Assembly (NCBI GenBank): GCA_038064675.1
Contig: JBBTSM010000002.1
Span: forward strand, 6,507 to 70,506
DNA: 64,000 bases
DNA from: Patescibacteria group bacterium
GTDB taxonomy: Bacteria; Patescibacteriota; Patescibacteriia; UBA9934
Direction: 5' to 3'
Below the pieces are notes generated by a model that was given only the letters and a program-made list of their open reading frames with translations, did not search any database and had not been told where the DNA came from. This document shows, in pieces, positions 17,450 through 60,643 of this stretch. How positions within the stretch are numbered: position 1 is the stretch's first letter; every line of letters starts with the position of its first letter. Both the position numbers and the translations under genes were made by a program.

Positions 17450-17472
17450 AGCTGTTTTGCGAAACGAACTTA

Positions 17473-18231: not shown

Positions 18232-19068
18232 TTACGCTTTCTGTACTATCTCGCTCTCACACGTCACCATTTTTCCGCCCTGTACGAATATCGTAACCTT
18301 TTGATAATCGTGCGCCTTGATCGCATCGGTGATGTCTTTGGGGGACAGATCGCCGCGCTCTCGCTTCGTTCCTCGAAACGTAGTCACGTTGCCGTTCTTC
18401 AAGGCCACTTCTATCTTCTCGAAGTCACCAGAACGCATTACTTCAAGCACGTCTTTTTCTTCCTTACTCACGCTTCCTCCGCCAAGGAGCACTTCGCTGC
18501 ACACTTTGAACATTGGGCCGTAGTCGATGGAACCCTTCGTTCCGAGTTTGCCAAGGAGCTCGTTGACGAACTCGTGCAAGTTGATGCAAGTGAATGATTT
18601 TCCGCCCATGCCGCCGTAAAGGTTGATGGACACGGGATCGTAAAAATCCGCGCCAAGGTCTGGGGAGTATTTCAGGATGATGGGGATGCCGAGGAATGCA
18701 TAGCCGATTGCCTTTGCCGACAATCCCCTCGGCTCGGCAACAATGCCGCCCATTCGTGGGATACCTTCGTCCTTTTCTCCTTTGAAAAATGCTTTGTAAA
18801 GCGGGAGAAGCTGTTTGTTTGTAAATCCGTTTCGTTTGAGCTCCTGTGTTACAGCAAGGAAAATAAGCTCATTGAAAGAAAACTTGCGCCATTTGCCCTC
18901 GTCCTCCTGCGCGTCGAGGATGCCGTCTTTGCTCAAAAGGTGGATCTGCCGATAGGTGAGCGACGTATCGGAAACCCGAAAGTTTGGTTTGTTGATGAAC
19001 TCCAAGATATTCATTTTGGCGTCCATTCGTATCAAGTTGAGTTCTGCTGCATCGGAAAAATAGAGCAT
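18232..19068 (-). CDS. hypothetical protein (island cargo)
   Basis: The ORF is 278 aa. No motif was recognised. Confidence 0.4.
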   Translation of the reverse strand: MLYFSDAAELNLIRMDAKMNILEFINKPNFRVSDTSLTYRQIHLLSKDGILDAQEDEGKWRKFSFNELIFLAVTQELKRNGFTNKQLLPLYKAFFKGEKDEGIPRMGGIVAEPRGLSAKAIGYAFLGIPIILKYSPDLGADFYDPVSINLYGGMGGKSFTCINLHEFVNELLGKLGTKGSIDYGPMFKVCSEVLLGGGSVSKEEKDVLEVMRSGDFEKIEVALKNGNVTTFRGTKRERGDLSPKDITDAIKAHDYQKVTIFVQGGKMVTCESEIVQKA

Positions 19069-19201
19069 ATCGCTCTGTAGTGTAGCACTATGAATCGAAC
19101 GAGCAAGTTCGTTTTATGCACAGCACTTGAAATAGAACACACCCGCCGAGACGCAGGTACACGACGGGCGTGTTCCTTTGTCTCGTACGGGTGTACGAGT
19201 G

Positions 19202-19738
19202 CTACCGCTGCGGTTCGCCGCGATAGCTACGGCGGTGATCTTCCTCGCAGGACCGCGCCTCCGCCTCGCTGGCGCACGCGAAGGCGTAGCTATCGCCCCG
19301 CAGGTCGGTAGGGCCACCTCCGACTTTGACCCTGAACGGCGCGGGGTTGTTACCGCGGTAGAGGGAGACGAAGCCGAACTTGTCCGCCATCTCCTCACTG
19401 ACCGTGACCCAGTTCCTGCCGCATTCGACGATCCACGCCTTCGTCTCCTCGACGAGGGCGAGAGCGCCATCGCGGGTCTTGGTGCTGTAGTGCCCTTGCA
19501 ACCGCATGCCGTCCCCAGTCCTGATCTCGATGCGATAGATCTCCAACGGCGCGTACTGCCCGCCGCTGATCGAGAGGATCGCGGCGCTGACGATCTGCTT
19601 CTTGGAGCGAGGACAGGTGGCGGGCGGGTTCTCCATCATCAGGGTGAAGTGGTGGGTGTGTCCCTGAAAGAAGAAGAGATCGCCGATCAGATCGCTCTTG
19701 CTCGGTCCCGCGATGATGCGGAACGTTGTGGTAGCCAT
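19202..19738 (-). CDS. hypothetical protein in GC-rich patch
   Basis: The patch is about 62% GC against a 50% background. The minus-strand ORF has a balanced composition. The overlapping plus ORF is Arg/Ala/Leu-rich and looks antisense. Confidence 0.35.
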   Translation of the reverse strand: MATTTFRIIAGPSKSDLIGDLFFFQGHTHHFTLMMENPPATCPRSKKQIVSAAILSISGGQYAPLEIYRIEIRTGDGMRLQGHYSTKTRDGALALVEETKAWIVECGRNWVTVSEEMADKFGFVSLYRGNNPAPFRVKVGGGPTDLRGDSYAFACASEAEARSCEEDHRRSYRGEPQR

Positions 19739-19958
19739 AACGGCTCCTTCTGTGTTGAACACCTTCGTCGTTGAGAGTGAAGGTAAGCTCCGTTACGCCG
19801 CATCGCTGCCGCGCCACCTGACCATAACGGACAGGGATTTTCGAGCGTGTGCCCGTCGGCAGCCACGACTTTCGTCATGCTCACCGAAGGACACAGCTCC
19901 ACTATAACGTCATATTATACCAGAAAATGGATACTTTGTCAATAAAATATCTCGTAAA

Positions 19959-19978
19959 TACGGCTAGTATTAGCCGTA
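19959..19978. repeat. perfect inverted repeat TACGGCTA-gtat-TAGCCGTA just downstream of recombinase 2
   Basis: Read from the sequence. Confidence 0.35.
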
Positions 19979-19997
19979 TAATCTTCCGCACCTCTGC

Positions 19998-21665
19998 TTA
20001 TACAAATACCCGTGTTTCACCCCTTATTGGTAGTACTATACGCCCGCATATTGGGGTTTTCTTGCCTCCATTCCGATGGCATATAGCTGTTTTAGCTCTC
20101 CCACGAGCTGGTTCCAAAACTCTACCGATTGGCTCACCAAAAGCTTCTCCGTCGAATATGACGGGGATGTTTTTGTTATGGACGAATTCTTTGCAGAGAT
20201 AATCAAGCGGAGCATTGAGAATGGCCTTGTAAAGTTTGCCGTCGCGCACGATGAGGTCTTTGAAGACGATGGCGAGGATCTGACGCTTCAACGGCTCAGG
20301 AGCCCGTTTGTAGGCCTTAGGGAGATCACGAATGAACGCCACTGCTCGCTCCAGAATTTGAATGGCCGATTGGATCATTGTTTGGTTCGCCTCCAGCCGC
20401 GCTTTGCAGCGAGCCCGATCGGAAGAAACTTCTTCACGGATGGTTTCGTAAATTTCCTCACTGAGTTTATTTTCCAGATACTTGTTCACGAGCGCCCGCT
20501 CTTTAGCGTCCAGCTCTTCAATCTTTCGCGTAAGCTCCCGACGCTCTTTCGTCACGGACGTCTGTTCTCGCTCGTGGATTTCTTGCAGCTTCTTCTCAAT
20601 GCGCCCAACGATGCGTGCGGGCAAACGCACCACTTTCAACGCTTTCAAAACTTCGCCCTCCAGCTGGGTCGTTTCAACGTAGGACTGCGAGCAGAAGACG
20701 GGGTGACCTTCCCGTTTCTTGGAGCAGCGGTAATAAGAAATTACTCGACCCGAGGAAGTCGTCTGTTTTTCGTAAGTAATACCACCGCCACACTCCCCAC
20801 AAATCATAATCCCGCGAAGCAGAAAAGCGTTCTTTCGTTTCTTGCTGCGTCCATGCACTCGATCTTCCAAAGCAAACTGGACGCGCTGAAAAAGTTCTCG
20901 GGAAATGAGAGGCACGTGCGATCCCTTCGCTTCAACGCCATTCCAGCGGATGGAACCGATGTAGAAGGGATTTTTGAGCATGCGGCAGATAACCGAACCG
21001 GATAGCGGCTTATCGACACGCCCCTGCCGAATGCCCTGCGAGTAGAGCCACTTGGTCAACTCGATCGCTGTGTATTGTCCGGTCGCAAACATTTCAAAGA
21101 CCTTTACCGCAAGGTCGCGCGTCTTCGGATCGGGGGCGACATACTTTCTTTCGATGCCGTCGGAGTCGATCTCCTTCACGTTTTTGTAGCCAAATCCAGC
21201 TTTGGTATTCCAAAGTCCCTGCTGGGCACGCTGGTTCATGCCCTTGAGCACGTCTCGGCCAAGGTTGAGTGACTGGTACTCCGCCATTGCAGCAAGAATG
21301 CCCTCTGTGAATTTTCCCTCCGGTGTCTCGTCGATGTTTTCCGTGGCAGAAATGAGCTTGATCTTCTTTTTGCGGAGAGTTCCGACAATGGCCGCATGGT
21401 CGATGGTGTTACGCGCAAGACGGCTGACTTGGTGAACGTATACCGCGTCGATACCGCCCTGTCTGCAGCGATCTAATAGCGCCTGAAGACCCGGCCGAGC
21501 GTCAGTACGCGCAGATTCTCCCTCGTCACGAAATATGTGCCCAATCTCGTAGCCATCAGCGGCGGCACGCGTTTTGCAGACCTCCTCCTGCGCGGGCAAG
21601 GAAAATCCCCGCTCGGCTTGCCGGTCGGTTGAAACACGTAAATAGAGAAGTGCTATTTTACTCAT
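19998..21665 (-). CDS. large serine recombinase (second copy, different sequence)
   Basis: It has ALLYLRVSTDRQ...GESART... and is 555 aa. Confidence 0.85.
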   Translation of the reverse strand: MSKIALLYLRVSTDRQAERGFSLPAQEEVCKTRAAADGYEIGHIFRDEGESARTDARPGLQALLDRCRQGGIDAVYVHQVSRLARNTIDHAAIVGTLRKKKIKLISATENIDETPEGKFTEGILAAMAEYQSLNLGRDVLKGMNQRAQQGLWNTKAGFGYKNVKEIDSDGIERKYVAPDPKTRDLAVKVFEMFATGQYTAIELTKWLYSQGIRQGRVDKPLSGSVICRMLKNPFYIGSIRWNGVEAKGSHVPLISRELFQRVQFALEDRVHGRSKKRKNAFLLRGIMICGECGGGITYEKQTTSSGRVISYYRCSKKREGHPVFCSQSYVETTQLEGEVLKALKVVRLPARIVGRIEKKLQEIHEREQTSVTKERRELTRKIEELDAKERALVNKYLENKLSEEIYETIREEVSSDRARCKARLEANQTMIQSAIQILERAVAFIRDLPKAYKRAPEPLKRQILAIVFKDLIVRDGKLYKAILNAPLDYLCKEFVHNKNIPVIFDGEAFGEPIGRVLEPARGRAKTAICHRNGGKKTPICGRIVLPIRGETRVFV

Positions 21666-21714
21666 ACGTTATTGGGTGAATTATGCGGTTATTTTTGAAT
21701 TCACGAAAGCCACG

Positions 21715-21840
21715 TTTTTCACTGCGGAAATTCCCGAGAAATCACTGCATAATCTCCGGCCATTTCACTCCAAAAATCACTGGAAGAATGTCCTTTCGAC
21801 AAAAAGAAAATCGCATAAGTAAGCCATGAAAATCACTTTT
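21715..21840. repeat. iteron-like direct repeats (A/T)AATCACT(G) x3 plus two TTTCACT variants upstream of recombinase 2
   Basis: AAATCACTG is at 21739. AAATCACTG is at 21774. AAATCACTT is at 21829. TTTCACTG is at 21718. TTTCACTC is at 21763. Confidence 0.4.
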
Positions 21841-21865
21841 CCCCTTATCCAACTTTCTGGAGTTT

Positions 21866-22459
21866 TCAATCAGGAGTTTCTGCAGTGCCCGCAGAAAAGT
21901 TTCCGCAGTCCCGAGTGTCGGTTATTGCGGCACGTCGTGCCTCGGCTCCTATGAGATTTTTATAGGTGAATTTTTCATCATCCCCGCCTCCATATGCGAC
22001 CCATCGCTTCTGATGGGGGACAAAAAGAATCACCTTGCCGTCAGGGAGAGCTTTTGCCGGATCCTTTCCAAAACGTAAACCTCCTTTGTTTACATATTTC
22101 TTATTCACTACATCTTGTTTGTATTCGCCCTGCCGAAGGGGAGGTACTCGCTCACCCGAATACCCCCCTTCGCCCTGCCGAATGGGTGTATGAGGAAAAA
22201 CATATCGGTTCACATGACCGGCTGTACGGGCCACACTCAGCCACCCTGCCTTTTCTAGCTTTATGACTGACTCGTAGAGGCATGTGAGGCCAATTTTATT
22301 CTTCGTCTTCTTGCGGAGTGCTGCATTGGAAGGATTGCATTGCCCAGTTCTGCCATTACGAAAAGATTGCAAAACCCCATATACCCAGTAATCTCGAAAG
22401 CTGAGATCTGGGTCGAGGGCTATGCCGTGAGGGTTCATTGAAAATCCTTTATTCTCCAT
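21866..22459 (-). CDS. hypothetical protein (island cargo)
   Basis: The ORF is 197 aa. No motif was recognised. Confidence 0.35.
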   Translation of the reverse strand: MENKGFSMNPHGIALDPDLSFRDYWVYGVLQSFRNGRTGQCNPSNAALRKKTKNKIGLTCLYESVIKLEKAGWLSVARTAGHVNRYVFPHTPIRQGEGGYSGERVPPLRQGEYKQDVVNKKYVNKGGLRFGKDPAKALPDGKVILFVPHQKRWVAYGGGDDEKFTYKNLIGAEARRAAITDTRDCGNFSAGTAETPD

Positions 22460-22469
22460 ATTCTTCTGC

Positions 22470-22742
22470 TCAAATTCCGTCGTAGAGGATGGACTTCAAC
22501 CGCTTAATCGCATTTACAAATGCAGGAGCGTGAACCAGCGCGTCGTGCCCAAGAGTAAACTCATTAGTCAGACGTCTTACATCGCCATCGTCCGCAAAAA
22601 TAAACGTCGCTCGGCTACCGTCTCGCTCGCAGTTCACGATGCGCTTACCGTGGGCAAGGAGATATGCCGCGAGGTAAAAATTACTCGTTGGAAACTCCAC
22701 GATCTCTGTTTTCATACGTATTCTGATCCGGCTGCCGTGCAA
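22470..22742 (-). CDS. small hypothetical protein (island cargo)
   Basis: The ORF is about 80-90 aa. Its true start is probably MKTEIVEF. Confidence 0.35.
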   Translation of the reverse strand: MHGSRIRIRMKTEIVEFPTSNFYLAAYLLAHGKRIVNCERDGSRATFIFADDGDVRRLTNEFTLGHDALVHAPAFVNAIKRLKSILYDGI

Positions 22743-22820
22743 TCAAATAAAGCGCCTCGGCGAGTTGCTCGATGAGCTGGTCTTCGGCGCTTTGTTGTGC
22801 GGCATCTGGCTTGAACATAA

Positions 22821-22844
22821 GGGCTACTCAACAAAGAGTAGCCC
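22821..22844 (-). terminator. hairpin downstream of the 22881..23576 gene
   Basis: GGGCTACTC-aacaaa-GAGTAGCCC. Confidence 0.4.
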
Positions 22845-22880
22845 TATGCCTCCTATGACTGGTTTCACCAATTCACGAAA

Positions 22881-23576
22881 TTAGTGAAACCGCTTTTTTG
22901 CACGATGTTTTTGCAGCTTTATGCGTTTGACCTCGGCATCCTCCTTTGCCTTTGAAGGAAATTCGTCGTCTACGTTCATCTGGGCGGCGATGTCGCGATT
23001 GGTTTTGATCATTGCTATCGGTTCGCCCGTATCGCTGTCGATGCCGTTGATGACGCCCTTTTGATGATGTAGCTTGAGAACTTTGGCATTTTCTTCGGCA
23101 TTGGGTCGACTTCTTGGGCTTTTATGCCCCATAGCTTCGTGAATGTCTTTTACGAGCTTATCACGCAGGCGCTTCTCTCCAGTTGCGAGTGGCATATCTT
23201 CAGCGTGTTCAATACGTTTTGAACCGGCGGTGATAGTGACGGAAAAGTTTCCCGGAATATGGCGGATCTTATTTAGCACGAGAAAATACCGCACTGCATC
23301 GTGATAGTTTTCAGCGAGCTTTAACTTCTCCAGCATGACGCGGATAGCGCATTTCAGTTCCATGTGCCGACGCGCTACATCGGCCATTGGGATTCCGTCT
23401 GGGCGAAGCCAAACGGCAGCGGCTGGTGCCGTTTCAAAACCCTCAGCGGGTATGCCAATACTCGTGCGCAGCTTCTGTGCAATCGCATCTCCATTACAGT
23501 AAGCCAACCGCTCAACAAAACGTTGGCGGTTTATTTCCGTGGCCTTTTCAGCCAATTCTAAATCCTTATTCTTCAT
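22881..23576 (-). CDS. hypothetical protein (island cargo)
   Basis: The ORF is 231 aa. It has a basic C-terminus. Confidence 0.4.
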   Translation of the reverse strand: MKNKDLELAEKATEINRQRFVERLAYCNGDAIAQKLRTSIGIPAEGFETAPAAAVWLRPDGIPMADVARRHMELKCAIRVMLEKLKLAENYHDAVRYFLVLNKIRHIPGNFSVTITAGSKRIEHAEDMPLATGEKRLRDKLVKDIHEAMGHKSPRSRPNAEENAKVLKLHHQKGVINGIDSDTGEPIAMIKTNRDIAAQMNVDDEFPSKAKEDAEVKRIKLQKHRAKKRFH

Positions 23577-23661
23577 ATTCTCGCCCTTGCTTACCAGTGT
23601 AATTCCTGTAAACTATCCTTACAATCTGCCTAAACCGGCTTCGGCCGGCATGGCACTAAAT

Positions 23662-23813
23662 CCACGCAAATAGAGACGGTCTCGTGACCGGCCCATTTGC
23701 GTGGTTCGTATTCGAAAGAATACGAGGCGGCTCCGAAAGGTGTCCGTCGCCGGCTCGCGGAACCTTTTGTGTTCCGCGACCCCAAGAAAATAATTCGTAA
23801 AACCACGCAAATA
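23662..23813. promoter_or_regulatory. three copies of CACGCAAAT(A) motif (two direct, one inverted) in divergent intergenic region
   Basis: CCACGCAAATA is at 23662. The inverted copy ATTTGCGTGG is at 23695. CCACGCAAATA is at 23803 and overlaps the ATG of the downstream ORF. Confidence 0.4.
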
Positions 23814-24313
23814 TGTCAGACGCAACGAGACCGATCTACCGAATGTGGTGGTTCTGGGTCGCGGCAGTGTTCGTTTTTCTAATGATCGTCGGCGCGATGT
23901 CGGGTGGATCCACGCCAACCAACGACAGCACGTCACAAGAGGCCACAACCCCGATAGTGAACGGCGAGCATTTGCTCGGGTTGACGATTGACGAGGTGCG
24001 CGAGGAGATGGGAATCCCTGATGACGAGAGCACCATGGACCCGACCGCGCAGCAGCTAGCGCTTGGTGGCACGAGTACGTGGACGAACCAGTACACGGTC
24101 AGCGATCACACTATCGTGCTCGATTTCGATATGAAGTCGCGGCAGGTCACCGGCTTCTTCATTGGCACCGACGAGAAAGACGGGATTACGCGCGACTGGA
24201 AGGCACTGCTCCCGCTTAGTGGTCTTTCTGAGGACGCGCAGGGATACTCCATCAAGCCAATCGGTGCGCTCAAGAGTCCCGGCTTCTACACCGGAGTGCA
24301 GGCGACGGAATAG
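23813..24313 (+). CDS. membrane-anchored hypothetical protein
   Basis: One N-terminal TM (WWFWVAAVFVFLMIVGA) is followed by a soluble domain. Confidence 0.4.
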   Translation: MSDATRPIYRMWWFWVAAVFVFLMIVGAMSGGSTPTNDSTSQEATTPIVNGEHLLGLTIDEVREEMGIPDDESTMDPTAQQLALGGTSTWTNQYTVSDHTIVLDFDMKSRQVTGFFIGTDEKDGITRDWKALLPLSGLSEDAQGYSIKPIGALKSPGFYTGVQATE

Positions 24314-30660: not shown

Positions 30661-31377
30661 ATGAGAACAGCGCGTTTTTTTGTCCCCGCAGATTGGATTG
30701 CGCAAAGCGCGCAGGCCTTTTCGATTCCGGCGGGTTCGATACACAAACAGATTGTTTCCGTGCTTCGGATGAAGCCATCGGATCATATCAGTCTGTGCCC
30801 GAACGACGGAACAGAAATTGATTGTGAAATTACGGAGATTACCAAGGCAGCAATCCTCGGAAAGATTGTTGGATCTCGAACGGCCGAGCCGTTGCGCCCA
30901 TCAATCACTGTGTGTGCGGCGATCACGAAGCGCGACACGTTCGAGTGGACGTTGCAGAAATGCACAGAGATTGGTGCGACGGCGTTTATTCCGATGATCA
31001 CCGACCGCGTGATTAAAAAGACGAAGGAGGTTCCGGCGCGATGGATGGATATTCTTCGTGAGGCGAGCGAGCAGTCTGGCCGGACGACACTTCCAATGAT
31101 CCACGATCCGTCATCGCTGAAGTCGGCAATTGAACAGACGGCGAAGTTCGATCGAATCGTTCTTCACGAGTCGGTTGGAAAGGTTGCGCCAATGCCAAAG
31201 GTTCGCGTGATGGACCACGTTGCGCTATTTATCGGACCAGAAGGGGGATTTTCCGATACCGAGATCGAAGAGCTGCGATCGGCGGGATCGACGATCGTTC
31301 AGATCGGCGACCTGGTGATGCGCGCCGAAACCGCGGCCACGGTTGCAACGGCGCTTATTCGATTTGGGGCAATATAG
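30661..31377 (+). CDS. rsmE: 16S rRNA (uracil1498-N3)-methyltransferase RsmE
   Basis: It has an N-terminal PUA-like domain plus a SPOUT domain (GPEGGFS). The start is chosen at MRTARFFVP. Confidence 0.8.
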   Translation: MRTARFFVPADWIAQSAQAFSIPAGSIHKQIVSVLRMKPSDHISLCPNDGTEIDCEITEITKAAILGKIVGSRTAEPLRPSITVCAAITKRDTFEWTLQKCTEIGATAFIPMITDRVIKKTKEVPARWMDILREASEQSGRTTLPMIHDPSSLKSAIEQTAKFDRIVLHESVGKVAPMPKVRVMDHVALFIGPEGGFSDTEIEELRSAGSTIVQIGDLVMRAETAATVATALIRFGAI

Positions 31378-31460
31378 TCAGAAAGTTGTTCTTTTTTGGA
31401 ATTTTTGTTAGGATTTTCTGTCCCGAGCATCTCGCTCGGTGGCAGCCACACAGGTGATTC

Positions 31461-32627
31461 GTGGATTCTCCTCTCTCCATCGCCGTTCGCCGCGGTCTCG
31501 TTCGCGAGCTTGTCCAATATCCGCTCTCCTACGAGGAGATCGGGCAGGTGCTCGGCTTCGATGTCAGTACGATTGCGAACGACATCAGTGCGCTCCGGCG
31601 GGCAGGCGATCCGATCGCTCGCTCGAAGCCGTCGTACGCCGTACGACTCGCGGTCTACGTGCAGACCCTCAACGCGGAATCGCTGGATCTGAGTCCGGAG
31701 ATCACGATCGAGGTGCAAAAAGCGCTCCATTTCGGCCTCAACCTCGACGGGTTCGAAGTGGTGACGCGTGCCATGATCGATGGCATCAACATGGCCCGTG
31801 CGCCGAAGATTCCGCCCCATCTCTGGAACACCCAGCGGCTGGTGCACGCCATCTTCGGCTATGCCGCGCCCATCGACCAGTTCCTTTTCCGGCCGTGGGA
31901 TCCGCGTTTCAACGGACGCAAGATCGATCTTGCGGACGAAATGGCACGGCAGTGGTATCCACGGATGCTCTCGAGCGGCGTCGATCTCGTGAGCACGGTG
32001 AAGAATCATGTGGATCTCGCCCGCCAGTTCGTGGCGTTCCACGTGTACGAAGGGCAAGTGATGGAGCACCATATCGCTCCCATCAATCCGGATCGTCCGG
32101 CCAGCTGCCGCGCGGACGTGGTGGTGGGCAACGCCGTCAAGGAGCGGCTGGACAATGCGCTGGCCGCGCTGAGCAGTCGTTATCGTGAAGTGCTGCGCCT
32201 TCGTTACCCGGAAGACGGGAGTGAGGGGGAAGAGCTGTCCAAGATCGGGAAGCGCATGGAGCTCAGCCGCGAGCGCATCCGGCAGATCGAAGCCGAGGCT
32301 CTGAAAGAGATGCGAACGTTCCTCGTGGCGGACGACGTTGACATCCATCCGGTGTCCACGTTCGCCGCCGTGGTTGCGAATGTTCGGAATCTGGCCAGGC
32401 GCTACACCCCCGAGAATCCTGCCGATCTCTACCTTACCGGTTCCATCGCCGAACTCAATCTCTCGCCTCGTGCACAGGCGGTGATCGAGGAGCTCGGTTT
32501 GAGTCGGGTCTTTGAACTTCGCGGGGAAGGCTCTGGAAATATTCTCCATGCGGTGAACGGGGGGCGGAGTGTGGCCGATGAAGTGAAGTCGGCGCTCGAT
32601 AGGATCGAGGCTCGCTCGAAATGCTGA
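31461..32627 (+). CDS. sigma-70 region-4-containing protein with C-terminal HhH (alpha-CTD-like) segment; atypical architecture; GC-rich insert
   Basis: The region 4 HTH is LSSRYREVLRLRY...EELSKIGKRMELSRERIRQIEAEAL. The C-terminal segment is LSPRAQAVIEELGLSRVFEL. The region is about 60% GC. Confidence 0.5.
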   Translation: MDSPLSIAVRRGLVRELVQYPLSYEEIGQVLGFDVSTIANDISALRRAGDPIARSKPSYAVRLAVYVQTLNAESLDLSPEITIEVQKALHFGLNLDGFEVVTRAMIDGINMARAPKIPPHLWNTQRLVHAIFGYAAPIDQFLFRPWDPRFNGRKIDLADEMARQWYPRMLSSGVDLVSTVKNHVDLARQFVAFHVYEGQVMEHHIAPINPDRPASCRADVVVGNAVKERLDNALAALSSRYREVLRLRYPEDGSEGEELSKIGKRMELSRERIRQIEAEALKEMRTFLVADDVDIHPVSTFAAVVANVRNLARRYTPENPADLYLTGSIAELNLSPRAQAVIEELGLSRVFELRGEGSGNILHAVNGGRSVADEVKSALDRIEARSKC

Positions 32628-38247: not shown

Positions 38248-38345
38248 CAATGTTTCGAAATGATGACAGAAAAAAGCCCAAAAAGCAAACGAGCCGCCCT
38301 TGCGTGGGGCGACCCGTCGTGCCTGATGAATGTGTGCTCTGGTTG

Positions 38346-39500
38346 CTACACCAGGGCGAGGATCTGCCGACCGACCGTGTCGTTGCTGCTGCTTCGCAGC
38401 CGGTAGCCTCCGCAGTCGTCGAGGACGCCACGTTCTGCGAGCCAGCGAATGGCGCGCTCGACGAGCCGTTCCGCGACGCGCTGTGTGTCGCCGACCATGC
38501 AGCGCATCCGGTAGACGATGATCGCCATCGTCAGCGGTGTACTTTCAGTCTTCATGACCTTGAGCACTCCGGCGACTCCCTGGGCGACGGATTTCGTCTG
38601 ATTGGGGAGGTGCGCCTGTAGCGCCTCCGCGAGCGTTCTCGGTGCCGGAATCTCCGGCCGAGGCAGCGCGATGATCGCGACCGCCTCCTTGAATGCGGGG
38701 GCGGCGATCGGTGGAGCGGCTGCCGGCGTGTGCCTTGGCTTGAACCCGCGCGTGAGGTGCTTCTCCTGACGGAGGAGGTTCCCTGCGACGGTGCGAAAGT
38801 TCTTTTTTCTTCCGTTCTTCCGCCAGCAATCCAGTACGGCTTCGAATTGCGGATGCGCCAGCATCGCGAGCGCGTTGGCCGGGCTACGGAGGTCGTCCGC
38901 AAGCAATGCTCGGTGCTGGAGCAGCTCCACGAAGACGACTTGCGCTTCGCGCGGCTGCGCGAGGAACACTCGCACCGTGGAGAGCGCGACTTCGAGGGGG
39001 ACGCCCTGAGAGCGGAAGGCATGAGCAGCGTGCGCAGCTTCCTTCGCATTCTGTTTTCCGTCGGGCATCAGGCACCAGCAGCCGAACGCCACAGGCCACC
39101 ACGTGGTGGCGGTTGCTGCACCATGTCCGTGGAAGAATCGCGCCTTGCGGTCGTGGAGCATGTGCTCACCTTTCCAGATTTGGAAGGCGAAGAAGTTTGG
39201 GTTCATCTCGCAGCATGACGTCAGGACGATGTCTGCCATGGCGGCTACCCTCGCGAGGTCGTTCGAGCGGCCACCCATGTCCAACACCAGGAACGCGGTG
39301 ACGTCGATGCCATCGTGGCTCGAGTGTCGGGTGGCCATCTGGAAGAAGGTGGTCAGCGCGTCGATGACTTCTGCCATTGCGCGGATACCGAAGAGGGGAG
39401 GGGCGACGTCGATCTCTTGCATTGAAAAACCCTTGCCGGCAGCGCGGTATGCGCTTTGGGCAGAGAAGTATTCCCATACTTTCACGGTTTCGTCAATCAA
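38346..39500 (-). CDS. hypothetical protein, GC-rich patch between ftsH and rpsA
   Basis: The patch is about 62% GC. The ORF is 384 aa. It is followed by a GC hairpin with an ACGCAA loop at 38283..38310. The start is uncertain (TTG or internal). Confidence 0.4.
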   Translation of the reverse strand: MIDETVKVWEYFSAQSAYRAAGKGFSMQEIDVAPPLFGIRAMAEVIDALTTFFQMATRHSSHDGIDVTAFLVLDMGGRSNDLARVAAMADIVLTSCCEMNPNFFAFQIWKGEHMLHDRKARFFHGHGAATATTWWPVAFGCWCLMPDGKQNAKEAAHAAHAFRSQGVPLEVALSTVRVFLAQPREAQVVFVELLQHRALLADDLRSPANALAMLAHPQFEAVLDCWRKNGRKKNFRTVAGNLLRQEKHLTRGFKPRHTPAAAPPIAAPAFKEAVAIIALPRPEIPAPRTLAEALQAHLPNQTKSVAQGVAGVLKVMKTESTPLTMAIIVYRMRCMVGDTQRVAERLVERAIRWLAERGVLDDCGGYRLRSSSNDTVGRQILALV

Positions 39501-49341: not shown

Positions 49342-49402
49342 AGACGCATGACGGCCGGCTTCCCGAGGGATGCCGGCCGTTCGTGTTGGTGACGTGTTCG
49401 TC

Positions 49403-50704
49403 CTACGCCGCGCTGAGCGCGTGATCGAAGCGCCGCTCGATTTCTCGCAGCCCGTCGGCTCTGTCGTCTCCCCGGTGGGCGACGCCGCGAATGAGATCCG
49501 TGATTTCACCCATCTCGCGGAGATGGTAGGGCTGGACCCAGGGGGCGCAGTCCATCATCCATTGCAGGCCCGCCTCACGGAAGCGTTGCAGCGCGTCAAT
49601 GTCTCCGCTGTTCACCATCTGGATGGCCGCCGAGAGTTGGTCGCGGAGCGCGACGGCCTTCAGGAACGCAGCCGCCCGACGAGCATTGCTCGCGATGCGG
49701 TTGTACTGCCTCGCTTCGAAGCCGTCGATCATTTCCTGTACTGCGGCGTGCGCGAATGCCGTCCAGGGAAGGATCGGGTTGATGAAGCTCCGTTTGAGCT
49801 CGTCGCGGTACCCCTTGAGTCGCTTGACGAAGTTGGTCACGCGCTGCTCGCTGACACCCAGCGGAAGCTCGGTGGTGATACCGAGCCACCACGACTTCTT
49901 GTCGTCGAGCTCTGTCGCCATCCGGCTACAGCGCTGGACCACGCGACCGATCCACTCCTCGATGTCGCGGCCACTGTACGTGACGGCCTCGAGCACATCG
50001 TGCTGGTCCGCGGTGAGCGCTTCCGCGCGGCGTTGAATGGCACGAACGATGAGCACGTAGCGGTACACATTCCGGCGGTTGATGGAATCGAGGGGATTCT
50101 CCATGCTCGCGAGGAATGCGCGGATCTCCTTAGCAAGCTTCGCGTTGGAATGCACGAAATTCTTGAGGAAGCGGATGTTCTCGCGGTGCGTCTCTGCATC
50201 GATCCGACGCTTGAGGCGGGTCTTCAGTGCGAACCCAAGCTTTTCGTCGCTCATCACGACGAGCGTGCGGAGAAGGACGATTTCGTTCTTCACTCGGCTT
50301 GCCGCACGACGCATGGCGCGGTTCACGCCGAACACCCCTGCTTCGAAGCCGGAGACGATCGGAAGGCGCTTCAGCTTGGTGGGATCGTCGGCTCCGTAGA
50401 TTTTGCTGCCCGGGGCGAAGATCACTTCGCGATCCACCTTCGTGAACCGCTGGAACACCTGGAAGCTCTGGGGGCCGCTCGTCATGCCCCACACCGATCC
50501 TTCGGAGAGACACGCGGCTTCGCCTTCAATGATGCGTCCGATGTGGCCGGAACCGTCCGGAGTGATGACGCCCTCGTGATTGACGAAGAGCATCAGTGCG
50601 AGCACGTGGACGAGGGGGAGGGTCGGGATGGGCTTGTCGCCAAGGGGGCTGATCACGATATTTTCCGGTCTGAGTGTGATACTGGCACGGGTGTGCCGGC
50701 GCAA
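49403..50704 (-). CDS. hypothetical protein, GC-rich patch
   Basis: The patch is about 62% GC. The ORF is 433 aa. A GC hairpin plus a GTTGGTGACGT box lie downstream at about 49350..49400. The start is uncertain. Confidence 0.4.
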   Translation of the reverse strand: MRRHTRASITLRPENIVISPLGDKPIPTLPLVHVLALMLFVNHEGVITPDGSGHIGRIIEGEAACLSEGSVWGMTSGPQSFQVFQRFTKVDREVIFAPGSKIYGADDPTKLKRLPIVSGFEAGVFGVNRAMRRAASRVKNEIVLLRTLVVMSDEKLGFALKTRLKRRIDAETHRENIRFLKNFVHSNAKLAKEIRAFLASMENPLDSINRRNVYRYVLIVRAIQRRAEALTADQHDVLEAVTYSGRDIEEWIGRVVQRCSRMATELDDKKSWWLGITTELPLGVSEQRVTNFVKRLKGYRDELKRSFINPILPWTAFAHAAVQEMIDGFEARQYNRIASNARRAAAFLKAVALRDQLSAAIQMVNSGDIDALQRFREAGLQWMMDCAPWVQPYHLREMGEITDLIRGVAHRGDDRADGLREIERRFDHALSAA

Positions 50705-50726
50705 GAGAATAGCCAGGTTTGTGGCT

Positions 50727-50756
50727 TGACGTCAAAGGGGTATTTCGCTATCCTTT
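50727..50756 (+). promoter_or_regulatory. candidate promoter of rpmF
   Basis: TTGACG-N17-TATCCT. Confidence 0.3.
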
Positions 50757-50777
50757 GCGCATTCTTCAATTCTCCCT

Positions 50778-51065
50778 ATGCCATTGCCGTCATTCCGAAG
50801 CTCACGTTCAAAGGTTCGCCGACGCCGTTCCCACCACGCGTTGAAGGCCCAGCAGGTCGCGGTTTGCGCAAAGTGTGAGGCAATTCTTTTGCCACACCGC
50901 GCATGTAAGAACTGCGGAGCATACGGCGATCGCAACGTTGCAAAGAAAGGCGCTGCAGAGGTAAAGAAGGCTATCGCGAAGACGGTCAAGAAGGCTCCAG
51001 CAAAGAAGGTTGCGGCAAAGAAGACGTCCAGCCAGCCTGGCCACGAAGGTCATAACCACGAGTAA
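50778..51065 (+). CDS. rpmF: 50S ribosomal protein L32 with Lys/Ala-rich C-terminal tail
   Basis: It has ...RRRSHHALKAQQVAVCAKCEAILLPHRACKNCGAY (L32 CxxC...CxxC). Confidence 0.7.
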   Translation: MPLPSFRSSRSKVRRRRSHHALKAQQVAVCAKCEAILLPHRACKNCGAYGDRNVAKKGAAEVKKAIAKTVKKAPAKKVAAKKTSSQPGHEGHNHE

Positions 51066-55730: not shown

Positions 55731-56288
55731 TTACTTGGTTTCATTCTGCGCTTGAACCGTTACCCCAATATTCTGGAGCGCATGTTGTACCGCGAGCACC
55801 TCTTTTTCATCGATAGAGCTCAGGAGGAGCGTTGTGTTCTCATTGAACGTACAGGAAAACGTCCACTGGATATAATTTCCTCCTCCTCCGTGTCTGTACC
55901 GTCGGAGACGGTTTGTGAGAGAGACCTGGATTTGTGTAAAGGAGACAGGCTCTGCACCTGTGAATGTTCCGTAAACGGTGCGAATATTTTTTCCAGACGG
56001 ATTCCACTCAGAGACGATGTCGGTTGGGATTGGACCCCGATATATCCTTCTGGGTAAGAGAATGCACACGAGAGCGATGGCATAGACTATCCCAATGGTG
56101 AGGGCGTTATTGTGCAAAAGACTCGATTCCGAATAGCCGATAGAAAAAAAGAGAAAACCAAATACGATGAGTGGAATAATCAAAAATTGAAATACTCGAG
56201 TCCAAGGTCCGTATGTGTGGATGACGAGCGTATTCTCTTGCTGCGTTACGCGACCCCATTGATTATGTGCGATTACCTCTGCCTTCAT
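55731..56288 (-). CDS. membrane protein (hypothetical)
   Basis: It has two TM helices. The longer track ORF would overlap adk. The start is trimmed to MKAEVIAHN. Confidence 0.4.
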   Translation of the reverse strand: MKAEVIAHNQWGRVTQQENTLVIHTYGPWTRVFQFLIIPLIVFGFLFFSIGYSESSLLHNNALTIGIVYAIALVCILLPRRIYRGPIPTDIVSEWNPSGKNIRTVYGTFTGAEPVSFTQIQVSLTNRLRRYRHGGGGNYIQWTFSCTFNENTTLLLSSIDEKEVLAVQHALQNIGVTVQAQNETK

Positions 56289-56333: not shown

Positions 56334-56918
56334 ATGAACCAACCGCTCAAAATTATCTTGTGTGGGCCGCCAGGATCTGGAAAGGATACGCATGCCGCAG
56401 TGCTTTCGGCAACGTTTGGTATCCCGACGATTTCCATGGGTGGACTCTTGCGATCCGAAATTGTGAAGCAAACCGCGGATGGTATTACTGCGGCTGGCTA
56501 CATGTCGCGCGGCGAAATGGTGCCGGAGGAGATTGTGACGCGGTTGGTGAAAGAACGGCTGGCGGACGAGAGTTGCAAGAATGGTTACATCTTGAACGGA
56601 TACACGCGGTCGCTCGACAAGCTCGAGACCTATCTTTCTTTCGATCACCCAACGCACGTTGTCCATTTATTGCTTGCCGACGACGACGTTCGCGATCGTT
56701 TAAAGGTTCGTGGGAGGCATGATGATCAGGCCCACGTTGTTGATGCGCGTTTGAAACTGTATCACGAGTCGGAAACGCTGGTGTGCGAGTTTTGGAAGAA
56801 CGATCCGTCCGTTTGGTATAAAGAAATTTGGACGAACCGCGTACCGATTGACATTACCAAGGACATCATCGATTTCATGCACGCTTCCATGCACATGCAA
56901 AATAGGTTCACCAAATAA
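56334..56918 (+). CDS. adk: adenylate kinase
   Basis: It has the P-loop GPPGSGKDT. It has the NMP-binding and LID segments. Confidence 0.85.
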   Translation: MNQPLKIILCGPPGSGKDTHAAVLSATFGIPTISMGGLLRSEIVKQTADGITAAGYMSRGEMVPEEIVTRLVKERLADESCKNGYILNGYTRSLDKLETYLSFDHPTHVVHLLLADDDVRDRLKVRGRHDDQAHVVDARLKLYHESETLVCEFWKNDPSVWYKEIWTNRVPIDITKDIIDFMHASMHMQNRFTK

Positions 56919-56926
56919 ACGAACGA

Positions 56927-56952
56927 CCGCGGCTCCTGCGTAGGAGCCGCGG
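56927..56952. terminator. GC hairpin CCGCGGCTCC-tgcgta-GGAGCCGCGG (first of four family members; shared by adk and cassette A)
   Basis: Read from the sequence. Related copies are at 57273..57297, 57811..57835 and 58229..58254. Confidence 0.5.
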
Positions 56953-56992
56953 CGCGTTGGCGACGTAGGCAGAGTGCCGAGATGTGGCGCGG

Positions 56993-57202
56993 TCAGTAGT
57001 CACCATCGTCGTCTTCGTCCCCGTCTGGGTTTTCGTTATCGAGATCGTCTTGGATGATCCACCGGTCTTGGCTGCCCGAATTCTCCGGTGCAACGTCGGT
57101 ACCGGCCGACAGAACCCAGATGAACGGGGCTTGAGGCTCGGCGGGACGAGCCCTGCCGCTACAGGTGGGACACGTTTCTTTTGAGCATGTACAGCGGATC
57201 AT
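56993..57202 (-). CDS. small Cys-motif acidic protein, cassette A (69 aa)
   Basis: The sequence is MIRCTCSKETCPTCSGRARPAEPQ...DGDEDDDGDY. An RBS AAGGAGG lies 8 nt upstream. It is a paralogue of cassette C. Confidence 0.5.
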   Translation of the reverse strand: MIRCTCSKETCPTCSGRARPAEPQAPFIWVLSAGTDVAPENSGSQDRWIIQDDLDNENPDGDEDDDGDY

Positions 57203-57238
57203 CCAAGGGTGCCTCCTTTGTGCCTGTACACAATGTAA

Positions 57239-57301
57239 GGCTTTTGAAAATTTTCCGCAATAAATGCAGCCGCCGCGACTCCTGCGTGGAGCCGCGGCGC
57301 G
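57239..57301. repeat. 63-bp perfect direct repeat, copy 1 (promoter-like TTGCGG-N17-TACATT region + terminator hairpin)
   Basis: It is identical to 57777..57839. Confidence 0.6.
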
Positions 57302-57345
57302 TGTTCGGGGAATCGTGTGTGGTGCGCTTGGTGTCAGAAGCGCCC

Positions 57346-57744
57346 TCAGGGATCGAGCGGCCCTCCGGGCCCGCGGCCGAGCCCTCGGGTCTGTCGTGCG
57401 CCTTCCACCGCTGCCCGACCGAGCTCGGGTCCAGTCATCTTGAACACGCGATCGAATGCCCCGCGCGTTTCCGGTCGTTGCTGATCGTTCACGATCGCTT
57501 CGGCCGTGGTTTCTTCGAACACGGCGTCGGCACCGGCCTTGGACGCGATGTCCGCGCCACGCTCGGCGACCCGCGCGTCCCAGTCGGCGAAGCAGGCAGC
57601 TTCGTCTCTCGGATCGATCCACGGAACCTCAGCGTCGGGCGGCAGAGGCGGACCGTGCATCGTCCGGAGCTCGACGGGCTTGTTGGGGTGAAGCGGACAG
57701 ATCCGTCCGGTGTGTTGTCCGCAGACGCAGGTATTCTCGGCCAT
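57346..57744 (-). CDS. small Cys-motif protein, cassette B (132 aa)
   Basis: The sequence is MAENTCVCGQHTGRICPLHP.... An RBS GAGGA is present. Confidence 0.45.
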   Translation of the reverse strand: MAENTCVCGQHTGRICPLHPNKPVELRTMHGPPLPPDAEVPWIDPRDEAACFADWDARVAERGADIASKAGADAVFEETTAEAIVNDQQRPETRGAFDRVFKMTGPELGRAAVEGARQTRGLGRGPGGPLDP

Positions 57745-57776
57745 CGGCAATCCTCACGGGTGTGCTTGAAATGTAC

Positions 57777-57839
57777 GGCTTTTGAAAATTTTCCGCAATA
57801 AATGCAGCCGCCGCGACTCCTGCGTGGAGCCGCGGCGCG
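57777..57839. repeat. 63-bp perfect direct repeat, copy 2
   Basis: It is identical to 57239..57301. Confidence 0.6.
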
Positions 57840-57871
57840 TTGGCGACGTAGGGTGCCGAGATGTGGAGCGG

Positions 57872-58090
57872 TCAGCAGTCACCTTCATCGTCATCCCCAT
57901 CTGGGCCTCCGCCAATCACCTCGTCATCGATGTTGTCGCCCCACCAGTCTTTGTTGCCCGAATCCTCCGGTGCAACGTCGGTACCGACCGACGGAACCTG
58001 GCCGAGCGACGTTTGAGGCCTGGCGGGACGAGCCCTGTCACTGCAGGTGGGACACGTTTCTTGTGAACAGCGACAAAGAATGTCTTCCAT
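57872..58090 (-). CDS. small Cys-motif acidic protein, cassette C (72 aa), paralogue of A
   Basis: The sequence is MEDILCRCSQETCPTCSDRARPARPQ...GTDVAPEDSG...DGDDDEGDC. Confidence 0.5.
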   Translation of the reverse strand: MEDILCRCSQETCPTCSDRARPARPQTSLGQVPSVGTDVAPEDSGNKDWWGDNIDDEVIGGGPDGDDDEGDC

Positions 58091-58286
58091 GAATGCCTCG
58101 GTGTGCGTATTTAATGTACGGCTCCGGAGTATTTTACGCAATTCCGAACGAACGTTTGAACATGAGCATTTCCACAGATATCATCCGATCGGATGGTATT
58201 TTCGGAAGAAAAGAACACGAAACGAACAACCGCGACCCCTTGCGTGGAGCCGCGGCGCGTGTTCGGTGATTTGGTCGTCGTCGCCT

Positions 58287-58526
58287 TCAGGAAGAGCCGG
58301 TGTGCGCTTCGCACGGAGAGCCGGGTCGGCAGTGCGGGCAGTCTGGCGCCCGCGTGGCGGTCGCTCGGCGTTCGGAGTCGGGGACTTGTCCAGTCATTCG
58401 ACCCCAAAGTGCCTCGTATTGTCCATCGTCGAGAGCCTCCTTCGGATTGGGCAGTTCCGCCCTTGCTCGAGGGTATCCCATGATCGGTACTCTTGTTTTG
58501 TGATTGTTTTCGTGTTCGGAAACCAA
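58287..58526 (-). CDS. small protein with C-terminal CPHC..C motif, cassette D
   Basis: It has ...APDCPHCRPGSPCEAHTGSS. The start is uncertain (TTG at 58526 or ATG giving 64 aa). Confidence 0.35.
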   Translation of the reverse strand: MVSEHENNHKTRVPIMGYPRARAELPNPKEALDDGQYEALWGRMTGQVPDSERRATATRAPDCPHCRPGSPCEAHTGSS

Positions 58527-58609
58527 AAGAAGGGTAGCTCCCGGGAAAGATTATCGCAATCCTCAGTCATTTCTTGCCCCAAAGCCGTTCGTCGAGTACA
58601 CTCTTGGCC

Positions 58610-60643
58610 ATGAACATCTCTGAACTTGCCCGCCGGTTGCGGGTTTCTACTGAAGAATTGCGTTCCAAGCTGCCGGAGCTTGGTTTCGATATTGGTGGCA
58701 AGGCCATCAAAATTCCAGATCGCGACGCTGGCCGCATCATGAATGCATGGCAAGACTACAAAAAGCGCCAATACCTCCAGCAAAAAATGGAGAACCAGAA
58801 GGCACAGATGCTTCTCAAGGAGAAGGTAAAGTCTGGCGACGCGCCAAAGGTAAAGATCCCACCAACGCTTTCCGTGCGTGAATTTGCGGTTGCACTGAAC
58901 ATGCCGGTGGCGAAAGTCATGCAGGAACTCATGAAGGCCGGTATTTTGGCCAGCTTGAACGAACGTATTGACTACGAAACGGCGTCGATCGTGTCTGAGG
59001 ATCTTGGGTTCATCACCGAACCGATGGAATCAGCCGACGAGTCTGTTGATGCTCACGCGGCGGATCGTATGGCCGAGGTGAAGGAAGAGGAATCGCATCA
59101 TACGGAAAATCTTGTTGCTCGTCCGCCGGTTATTGTTGTTATGGGACACGTGGACCACGGTAAGACGCTTATTTTGGACACTATTCGAAAGACTCGCGTT
59201 ATCGACACGGAAGCTGGAGGAATTACGCAGCACATCGGTGCATATCAGGTGGAAAAGAACGGAAAGATGCTTACGTTTATTGATACTCCTGGCCACGAGG
59301 CGTTTACCGTGATGCGTTCGCGTGGTGCGAAGGTTGCGGACGTGGCGATTCTCGTTATTGCTGCAGACGACGGCATGCGCCCGCAGACTCGCGAGGCGAT
59401 CGACATCATTAAGGCTGCAAAACTCCCGTTTGTTGTTGCGATTAACAAGATGGATAAGCCGGGCGCAAACATCGAGCTTGTGAAGAGCCAGCTTGGTGAA
59501 CTTGGATTAACGCCAGAAGACTGGGGAGGGAAGACGATTTGTGTGCCGGTGTCTGCAAAGACTGGCGCAAACATCGATCAACTCCTCGATATGGTGTTGT
59601 TGGTTGCTGATCTTGAGAAAGAACACATCGTCGCAAATCCAAACCGCCACGCCGTTGGAACAATTATTGAATCGCACGTGGACAAGGGCCAGGGCCCTGT
59701 TGCGACGATCATCGTCCAAACCGGAACATTGCACGCCTCGGATATTCTTTCTGTGCAGGGCGTGAACTACGGTAAGGTTCGGGCAATGAAGTCGTTTGAC
59801 GGTAAAGCGATTAAAGAAGCGCCTCCTTCAACGCCGGTGATGATTCTTGGCTTTAAGGAAGCGCCTTCCGTTGGGGATATTTTGGAAGTTCCGGAAAACG
59901 CCGACGAATTGCAGACCATCAAGTCGCAGGCCACAAAGAAGAGTGCTGTTGGACAGATGACGGTAAAGACGACTAATCAAACAGAAGAGGAAGTGGAAGA
60001 GGACGGCAGCAAGGCGGTGCTTAATGTGTTCGTGAAGGCCGACATGCTTGGATCGCTCGAGGCAATTATCGGTATGTTGGAAAAGATCGACAACCCATAT
60101 GTTGGTTTGACGATTGTGGGAAAAGGTCTCGGAAACGTGACCGATGCAGAAGTTTTGCGTGCAGAGGCTGCGAACGCCGTGGTGCTTGCGTTCAATGTGA
60201 AGCCAACGCCGGCCGCGCACGAACTCGCTCGTGATAAGCATATCGCCGTCGAAGAATATTCGGTTATTTATAAGCTCTTCGAAAATACGGTCGAGCGACT
60301 GAAGAAGCTCATTCCTTCTGAAAAGATCCATACTGAAGTTGGTGTTGCCGAAGTGCTCGCGCTCTTCAAGAAGACTGACAAGGGCCATATCGTTGGCGCA
60401 AAGGTGAAGAAGGGCAAGCTTATTCCAGGTGCCATCGTTCGCGTGCTCCGCGAAGGAAAGATTGTGGGAGAGGGAAAGATTGAAGCGCTTCAGAGTGGGA
60501 AATCTGCAGTAAAGGATGTGCTTGCGGGCCAAGACTGTGGATTAAGTTTTGTGGGCAAGACAAAAATTGAAATCGGCGATATCCTTGAGGCCTACACCGA
60601 AGAGCTTCATGCCCGTACATTGAGTGTAGAGGGTGCAAAGTAG
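58610..60643 (+). CDS. infB: translation initiation factor IF-2
   Basis: It has a GTPase with G1 GHVDHGKTL, DTPGH and NKMD. Confidence 0.9.
   Translation: MNISELARRLRVSTEELRSKLPELGFDIGGKAIKIPDRDAGRIMNAWQDYKKRQYLQQKMENQKAQMLLKEKVKSGDAPKVKIPPTLSVREFAVALNMPVAKVMQELMKAGILASLNERIDYETASIVSEDLGFITEPMESADESVDAHAADRMAEVKEEESHHTENLVARPPVIVVMGHVDHGKTLILDTIRKTRVIDTEAGGITQHIGAYQVEKNGKMLTFIDTPGHEAFTVMRSRGAKVADVAILVIAADDGMRPQTREAIDIIKAAKLPFVVAINKMDKPGANIELVKSQLGELGLTPEDWGGKTICVPVSAKTGANIDQLLDMVLLVADLEKEHIVANPNRHAVGTIIESHVDKGQGPVATIIVQTGTLHASDILSVQGVNYGKVRAMKSFDGKAIKEAPPSTPVMILGFKEAPSVGDILEVPENADELQTIKSQATKKSAVGQMTVKTTNQTEEEVEEDGSKAVLNVFVKADMLGSLEAIIGMLEKIDNPYVGLTIVGKGLGNVTDAEVLRAEAANAVVLAFNVKPTPAAHELARDKHIAVEEYSVIYKLFENTVERLKKLIPSEKIHTEVGVAEVLALFKKTDKGHIVGAKVKKGKLIPGAIVRVLREGKIVGEGKIEALQSGKSAVKDVLAGQDCGLSFVGKTKIEIGDILEAYTEELHARTLSVEGAK

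Follow-up and report, generated by a model that had tools for sequence, protein, structure and literature searches.

Integron arrays comprise an intI gene for a tyrosine recombinase, an attI site and generally promoterless cassettes, the attC sites being imperfect palindromes of 57-141 nt with RYYYAAC and GTTRRRY cores. Chromosomal integron arrays may carry near-identical attC repeats, for example the VCRs of Vibrio. Many bacteria have hotspots where genes turn over between conserved core genes (Oliveira, Touchon & Rocha 2017, PMC5635113). Here we analyzed an array of small genes in the interval between adk and infB (positions 56919-58609) of a 64,000-nt stretch of contig JBBTSM010000002.1, referred to as the window, which comes from a groundwater Candidatus Uhrbacteria genome of the Candidate Phyla Radiation (CPR) and is a metagenome-assembled genome (MAG). 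The interval contains four units on the minus strand, each composed of a promoter-like site, a small open reading frame (ORF) and a GC-rich hairpin. These units are probably copies of a single small gene resident in a variable slot, duplicated and reshuffled locally.

The array resembles integrons in that its small ORFs have the same orientation and each is followed by a hairpin of one repeat family. It differs from them in that no integrase was found within 10 kb, that the hairpins are near-perfect terminator stems of 26-29 nt without the paired R''/L''-L'/R' core sites of attC (the flanking GTTCGGG and GTTGGCG of the window do not fit GTTRRRY), that each cassette has its own promoter-like site and that the repeats follow the genome and not the cassette. 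An integron was rejected because three defining features (integrase, attC anatomy and promoterless cassettes) failed. With the hotspots described in PMC5635113 the locus shares a core-flanked interval, accessory content that differs between close relatives and includes toxin-antitoxin genes, and the absence of mobility genes. The Uhrbacteria slot, however, is very small (0.8-1.7 kb) and its content would mostly have been made in place, by duplication and reshuffling of a resident gene, with the same promoter and terminator on the copies.

From infB towards adk the array carries ORF D (58287-58481, 64 aa), gene C (57872-58090, 72 aa), gene B (57346-57744, 132 aa from its ATG) and gene A (56993-57202, 69 aa), all on the minus strand, in agreement with the four promoter-ORF-hairpin cassettes proposed in the initial annotation of this DNA. 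The flanking core genes are both on the plus strand: adk (56334-56918; Pfam ADK, 80-95% identical in related Uhrbacteria) is convergent with the cassettes and infB (58610-60643) is divergent from them. The promoter pattern described in that annotation, TTGCG(G/T/A)-N17-TAC(A/C)(T/C)T, was found ahead of all four ORFs, and these sites are putative promoters. That of A lies within 57232-57302 (-35 TTGCGG at 57255-57260, -10 TACATT at 57232-57237) and that of B at 57770-57798. The C promoter (58113-58141, TTGCGT-N17-TACATT) is closely similar to the B promoters of two related loci, L012 and L014 (related loci are given L numbers here), and the D promoter (58532-58560, TTGCGA-N17-TACCCT) has a -35 element and upstream flank, GAGGATTGCG, that are fixed beside infB in all relatives. 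The strict pattern TTGC-N19-TACAYT gave 4 matches against 0.13 expected in the window, namely the promoters of cassettes A, B and C and a site ahead of infB; the D promoter falls outside it. The infB site (58574-58602, plus strand, TTGCCC-N17-TACACT) stands back-to-back with the D promoter, their -35 elements being 13 nt apart, and its -10 ends 7 nt ahead of the infB ATG, so that the infB mRNA may be leaderless. Among relatives, 12 cassette promoters had conserved hexamers and variable spacers. A generic sigma-70 scanner did not call the cassette sites, because TTGCGG fits TTGACA at only 3/6 positions.

The hairpins lie 35-60 nt past each stop codon and are followed by a T-rich stretch that is interrupted in the window. 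The hairpin of A (56927-56952) has the form CCGCGGCTCC-loop-GGAGCCGCGG with the tail UCGUUCGUUUAUUU and a predicted sense-RNA stability of -28.6 kcal/mol; it lies 9 nt past the adk stop and may act bidirectionally. The hairpins of B (57271-57299) and C (57809-57837) fall within the two copies of a direct repeat described below, and that of D (58229-58256) contains two G.U pairs possible in the sense RNA alone (-23.5 kcal/mol, compared to -14.4 kcal/mol for the other strand). All four belong to the minus strand, have stems of 10-12 pairs and range from -23.5 to -28.6 kcal/mol; the terminator scanner called only those of A and D as full stems. The 14-mer GGAGCCGCGGCGCG occurs in exactly 4 copies in the 64 kb, all within the array.

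Sixteen hairpin copies from 9 genomes were aligned. Standard pairing was found in 96.9% of the alignment cells, both-side (compensatory) changes had occurred at 7 of the 12 pairs, the observed covariation score was reached by none of 500 shuffles, and shifted registers were only 35-56% paired. G.U pairs were frequent and exclusive to the minus (sense) strand. The hairpin is thus conserved at the RNA level, and the copies are predicted to be homologous intrinsic terminators working in the sense RNA. In relatives the stem is followed by clear T-tracts, such as GGUUUGUUUUUU and GUGUUUUUG. The elements share with Rho-independent terminators a GC stem-loop past the stop codon, the sense orientation, pairing backed by covariation and, in broken form in the window, the T-rich stretch. 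They differ in that all copies are homologous, including the 5' flank CACGCGCCGCG, and occur at this locus only, and in that the U-tracts of the window genome are interrupted. Dispersed palindromes of the REP/BIME type have many intergenic copies genome-wide; here the copies are confined to the adk-infB gap, both within the 64-kb window and in every 16-kb related locus, and membership of the REP family was rejected for that reason. No Rfam family matched the array region, in the window or in the relatives.

Hairpin identity groups by genome and not by gene. The four window copies and that of L007 are 85-100% alike, and the hairpins of L013, L014 and L018 are 94-100% alike despite following unrelated ORFs. 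Between the window and L007 the hairpin with its flank is identical at 36/36 positions, while the coding synonymous divergence (dS) is 0.52. Elsewhere in the window, a hairpin at about 38283-38313 has a GC stem, an ACGCAA loop and a T-rich tail. The initial annotation had likened it to the cassette hairpins; the style is indeed similar, but the sequence lies outside the cassette family. It ends a 384-aa orphan ORF (38346-39500, minus strand; GC 0.63, GC3, the GC content at third codon positions, 0.77; no Pfam match), and the composition of this ORF looks more foreign than that of the cassettes.

The direct repeat reported earlier, 57239-57301 against 57777-57839, is identical at 63/63 positions and lies in a perfect run of 64 nt. 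It extends to a 70/71 repeat (57232-57302 and 57770-57840, minus strand) whose copies flank gene B and extend exactly from a terminator hairpin to the end of the following gene's -10 hexamer. One copy thus joins the terminator of B to the promoter of A, and the other joins the terminator of C to the promoter of B. The centre of the repeat reads GCTGCATTTATT followed by GCGGAAAAT. In relatives with a single cassette, the former fits the terminator tail overlapping the adk stop (GCTGCGTTTATTTGG), the latter fits the promoter start on the infB side (GGATTGCGGAAAA), and both parts share ATT. We infer that the repeat is a novel terminator-promoter joint of the kind expected from head-to-tail duplication of an ancestral unit. 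CRISPR-like and MITE readings were rejected on anatomy, since the 71-nt repeats are 538 nt apart and enclose a gene. The repeats would leave B prone to loss or amplification.

Against its L007 homologue, B showed 23, 25 and 43 differences at the first, second and third codon positions and one 6-nt indel. Among seven B-type genes, third-position excess was observed and the ratio of nonsynonymous to synonymous divergence (dN/dS) was 0.18-0.65, with one pair at 1.07; it was below 1 in 18 of 19 scorable pairs, and adk gave 0.04 between the window and L007. These comparisons show the B family to be coding. The synonymous divergence of B between the same two genomes, 0.52, is less than half of that of the adjacent adk (1.22), which could reflect codon/GC3 bias in B or cassette recombination between lineages. 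A and C are paralogues, as had been recognized earlier, with 59% identity between the proteins and 83% between the cassettes at the nucleotide level (dN 0.22, dS 0.37, ratio 0.59). Their coding indels are of 6 and 3 nt, multiples of 3, and those in the flanks are of 3, 2, 4 and 1 nt. A and C are less securely coding than B, since they are compared over only 66 codons in two sequences, with no third-position excess. Ribosome-binding sites precede A (AAGGAGG, 8 nt ahead of the ATG) and B. Of the four ORFs, D alone was passed over by public gene callers. Overall, the ORFs are predicted to be coding but weakly constrained.

Several of these genes carry signs of change. In the window B a TGA occupies the place of a CGC of L007 (57346-57351 compared to L007 701-715) and takes away the ancestral RGCF end of four residues, which is conserved in four relatives, and the B homologue of L012 has an in-frame TAG; both changes look like early decay. 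ORF D is probably a remnant or a mosaic gene, since it is alignable to B-type genes only over its last ~26 codons (RAPDCPHCRPGSPCEAHTGSS), which are homologous to the tails of the B-type proteins L011D and P0004, and over the hairpin.

The slot was compared in relatives recovered through adk, which carry the title Candidatus Uhrbacteria; the adk protein matches came from contigs of groundwater samples (Hainich well H41) and from MAG GCA_964357295.1. A B-type gene is present between infB and adk in the window and in L007, L012, L014, L016, L018/L019, L020/L021, L022 and L023. B is syntenic in at least 9 related genomes, and it is usually alone. L020/L021, L022 and L023 have one B-type gene each, and so does L016, beside infB on a 756-nt contig that does not cover the adk side. 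L007 also has a single cassette, the B homologue, together with a second adk paralogue (L007 783-1352, between the B cassette and adk and 47% identical to the main adk). L014 likewise has one cassette, beyond which lie a promoter and an ORF-free stretch of about 230 nt. Three cassettes are found in L012 (the interrupted B homologue and two unrelated small genes) and two in L013, both with other small genes. L011 has one D-type gene with hicB/hicA on the opposite strand, and L018/L019 have three small genes, one of them a permuted B-type gene, with HicB in L018 and hicA and hicB in L019.

Throughout the relatives, the cassette promoters share one form and the cassette hairpins belong to one family. 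B-type and D-type genes occur at this site in relatives, and A and C were found only in the window genome. Most relatives hold one cassette in the slot, in line with the recent expansion proposed in the initial annotation, and the adk-infB gap reads as a lineage-specific variable gene slot in this clade. The hicB/hicA pairs, seen in two lineages, lie on the strand opposite to the cassettes (L011 8586-9120, L018 2200-2660 and L019 479-939). After the last hairpin of L013 (5283-5560) and L014 (8586-8870), on the minus strand, the promoter-like TTGACG-N17-TATCTT is followed by ~230 nt without a convincing ORF. The two loci are almost the same over the initial ~95 nt, which include two small hairpins, and the segment has its own terminator at the end. 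It had no Rfam match and is a candidate small RNA.

The protein family had not been recognized when the array was first described, and no match was found for A-D or for three other slot proteins in Pfam, PHROGs, NCBIfam or PADLOC. Among the models of toxin-antitoxin and defence families none matched A-D, and only the hicAB pairs of the relatives did so. An exhaustive profile search of 1.84 billion representatives returned only 15 proteins sharing modules. In the other protein searches, which covered 5.8 billion sequences, B found itself and one relative, A found only itself, and a profile of A and C found only A and C. A profile of the B family had no confirmed matches in metagenome contigs or viral contigs, and no match to B was found by tblastn among 50,697 phage records.

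The family relatives are only 30-45% identical, yet keep their motifs. One module consists of the knuckle C-x-C-GQQTGRIC-P-x-H-P followed by PVEFRT..GPPLP..E.PW, a second of Q.P..REAFDRVFAMTPEELGQAAVEGAR, and three alternative tails were found, GPFDPRGCF, TPDCPDCRPGFPYQAHAGSY and RTIYELDLVPRG. The modules occur in several combinations. P0004 and L011D join a B-type body or N-terminus to a D-type tail; the D tail matches L011D with E = 5e-13 in a small database, and P0004 as well. The tail of P0008, RELDLVPRG, recurs as the core in three separate small genes, L013_1, L012_2 and L018_1. In P0012 the second module comes first and the knuckle last, and in P0013 the second module is fused to a NUDIX domain. 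P0013 (L017 60-918) is the only clear case of the FDRVFQMTPEELGQAALDGAR motif outside the Uhrbacteria slot; it lies on a contig of 67% GC beside a peptidoglycan-binding-domain-like ORF, and matches phages through its NUDIX domain only. A and C resemble the N-terminal half of the B proteins, with E values down to 6e-6 in a small database. From these alignments B and D appear to be pieces of one modular family, to which A and C probably also belong. Neither this relationship nor the nature of the 63-bp repeat as a terminator-promoter joint had been noticed earlier. The family appears to be small, undescribed and restricted to one Uhrbacteria clade.

A-D have no hydrophobic N-termini, and A and C are strongly acidic (pI 4.05), with an acidic tail after an N-terminal C-x-C-x4-C-P-x-C motif. 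In the seven B-type proteins C6, C8, C16 and H19, forming the knuckle C-x-C-x7-C-x2-H, are invariant; the conservation of the Cys motif makes the zinc-binding reading, proposed earlier from its ribbon-like look, a reasonable one. The SWIM-type zinc motif is C-x-C-xn-C-x-H. Like small prokaryotic zinc-finger and zinc-ribbon proteins, those of the array are short and have four Cys/His residues arranged as two close N-terminal pairs. They differ in the spacing, both in B and in A/C, and in that a long helix with modular tails makes up the remainder; no zinc-finger family of Pfam or NCBIfam matched and the structural model has no confident zinc-binding fold. The AlphaFold model obtained from 16 sequences had a pLDDT of 78.5, with helices at residues 45-88, 91-101 and 105-119 at about 90, and residues 1-44, the knuckle region, without regular structure (pLDDT 48-75); the model from two sequences reached 58.7. 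Fold searches gave nothing specific and no headpiece structures. The best PDB sequence match was the dematin headpiece only, over 18-21 residues and not significant (E = 0.17-0.22), with a 21-residue likeness between EDFSRVFAMSPEEFGKLA in dematin and REAFDRVFAMTPEELGQAA in the B family. Membership of the villin/dematin headpiece (VHP) family was rejected, and the likeness was treated as chance because the Pfam VHP model matched none of the 16 members at E <= 10.

The initial annotation took the array for horizontally acquired, and an integron-like or otherwise mobile array, its ORFs and hairpins imported by recombination at the hairpin or at the joint, has to be considered. Such an origin would explain why one repeated hairpin separates small ORFs of unassigned role, why near-perfect 71-nt direct repeats surround B, as if a circle with one repeat copy had been inserted, how hicAB was taken into the slot in two lineages, and why the GC content exceeds that of the genome. 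The region is GC-rich as described, but with 60.6% compared to 52.1% for the 64-kb window and not 62% against 50%. GC3 is 0.63 in A, 0.59 in C and 0.615 in D, host genes having about 0.45-0.65, and 0.73 in B; the GC excess of the array lies in codon positions 1 and 2 and therefore reflects amino-acid composition. Within 10 kb on each side the neighbours are all core genes (gyrA, nusB, rnc, hup, rny, truB, adk, infB, trx, trxB and mgsA), no recombinase or integrase was found among the called genes, and the nearest recombinases, of the serine type, are ~35 kb away. A search for the hairpin DNA pattern in metagenomes, proposed in the initial annotation, was run and gave 0 matches in metagenome contigs, and the protein family had none in viral and phage collections. 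Horizontal acquisition is not supported, because GC3 is host-like (in A, C and D), B is syntenic, the hairpins group by genome and no recombinase was found within 10 kb. Together with the promoter on every cassette and the anatomy of the hairpins, these observations make a mobile array quite unlikely.

Alternatively, the array could be a repeated non-coding element or a set of small RNAs, and its ORFs chance frames in GC-rich DNA. The better conservation of the hairpin and its flank than of the ORFs, the pattern of changes between A and C, the silence of gene callers on D and the existence of long antisense ORFs (e.g. 57181-57801, plus strand) are what such an element would produce. Against this, the antisense ORFs are not conserved in L007, no Rfam family matched, and the B family is marked by third-position excess, by dN/dS below 1 in nearly all pairs and by motifs kept at low protein identity, besides indels in frame, ribosome-binding sites ahead of A and B and a confident helical model, so that a non-coding origin is very unlikely. 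A collapsed or chimeric repeat could also be suspected, given that the genome is a MAG and that three short-read contigs (L003, L004 and L006) break off within the 71-nt repeat. A repeat of 71 nt, however, is below typical read length and can be bridged by single reads, and identity is 100% over the whole array between two independent public assemblies (the NCBI MAG and an ENA contig), and likewise in at least 2 separate assemblies from different sample replicates besides the window contig. Because of this identity in independent assemblies the array is not regarded as an artefact, an explanation that is extremely improbable.

Local duplication of a resident gene, the origin favoured here, could have proceeded as follows. 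The ancestral slot would have held one self-contained transcription unit with a promoter TTGCG-N17-TACATT, back-to-back with the infB promoter, and a GC hairpin ending the sense RNA as an intrinsic terminator. Its product would have been a small cytoplasmic B-type protein with the C-x-C-x7-C-x2-H knuckle, a Pro-rich linker, a Trp/acidic segment, the FDRVFAMTPEELGQAAVEGAR helix motif and an alternative tail. Head-to-tail multiplication of the unit in the window genome would have created the terminator-promoter joint, now the 71-nt repeat on either side of B, and the copies would have diverged by truncation and module exchange: A and C to short versions with knuckle and acidic tail, D to the C-terminal CP-x-CRPG-x-PC tail module only, and B by loss of its last four codons.

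Several observations weigh against this interpretation. The matches behind the joint argument are short, about 12 nt and 9 nt, and the repeat (70/71) is far better kept than the accompanying A and C genes (~84%), so that an extra assumption is required. The similarity points to gene conversion, selection or a second, later event, and is compatible with each of these; gene conversion or unequal crossing-over would explain it most simply. The U-tracts of the window terminators are interrupted, with the tails UCGUUCGUUU(AUUU) and GGCUGCAUUUAUU, and the cassette promoters fit the E. coli consensus at only 7 of 12 positions, the generic scanner being silent. A and C show no third-position excess (16, 12 and 14 changes), and their likeness to B is carried largely by the Cys residues, with scores from a tiny database. 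Finally, D may be a pseudogene, with a weak ribosome-binding site, a poor -10 (TACCCT) and no call by gene finders.

The proteins may be dispensable, fast-evolving zinc-binding adaptors or antagonists that act through contacts of their acidic or helical tails with other proteins and have some role in genetic conflict, a tentative suggestion and no more than possible. Traits typical of conflict genes are the weak constraint, the change in copy number, the decay (the stop in the L012 B, the lost tail of the window B and the D fragment) and the co-location with hicAB. It is also conceivable, but unlikely, that the joint serves as a portable homology block, by which units are gained, lost, amplified and recombined at a fixed slot through homologous recombination and without a dedicated recombinase, giving new module combinations in a family that is in conflict with phages or the episymbiont's host cell. 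If true, the locus would be a recombinase-free counterpart of the integron that diversifies one modular protein.

Other features of the window were recorded. Between the D terminator and the C promoter lies an AT-rich spacer of 86 nt (58143-58228) with a perfect 14-nt palindrome, CATCCGATCGGATG, at 58182-58195, which has an operator-like look. A 185-aa ORF between truB and adk (55731-56288, minus strand) has no Pfam match and is called by public gene callers; in one other sample (L005) it has 195 aa. The serine recombinases (15929-17449 and 19998-21665, with Resolvase and Recombinase domains) lie near a tRNA gene (15895-15966) and a LOOT RNA (23627-23744), and the region 15895-23744 is probably one or two integrated elements. 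Other GC-rich ORFs (GC 0.58-0.62) without Pfam match are found at 49370-50878 (plus), 31299-32549 (minus), 19178-19774 (plus) and 23813-24313 (plus).

The reach of these results is limited: they concern a known kind of phenomenon and not a new genetic system, and open no long-standing question. They are a caution for genome scans, in that repeats and hairpins in a GC-rich patch are no proof of foreign DNA; amino-acid composition accounts here for the GC excess, and local duplication would account for the repeats. They also define an undescribed family of small proteins, with a C-x-C-x7-C-x2-H knuckle, a FDRVFAMTPEELG helix motif and three alternative tails. The genomes of CPR bacteria are tiny and contain many genes without an assigned role, and in this clade the birth, copying, truncation and reshuffling of one such family appear to be visible at a fixed spot between essential genes.

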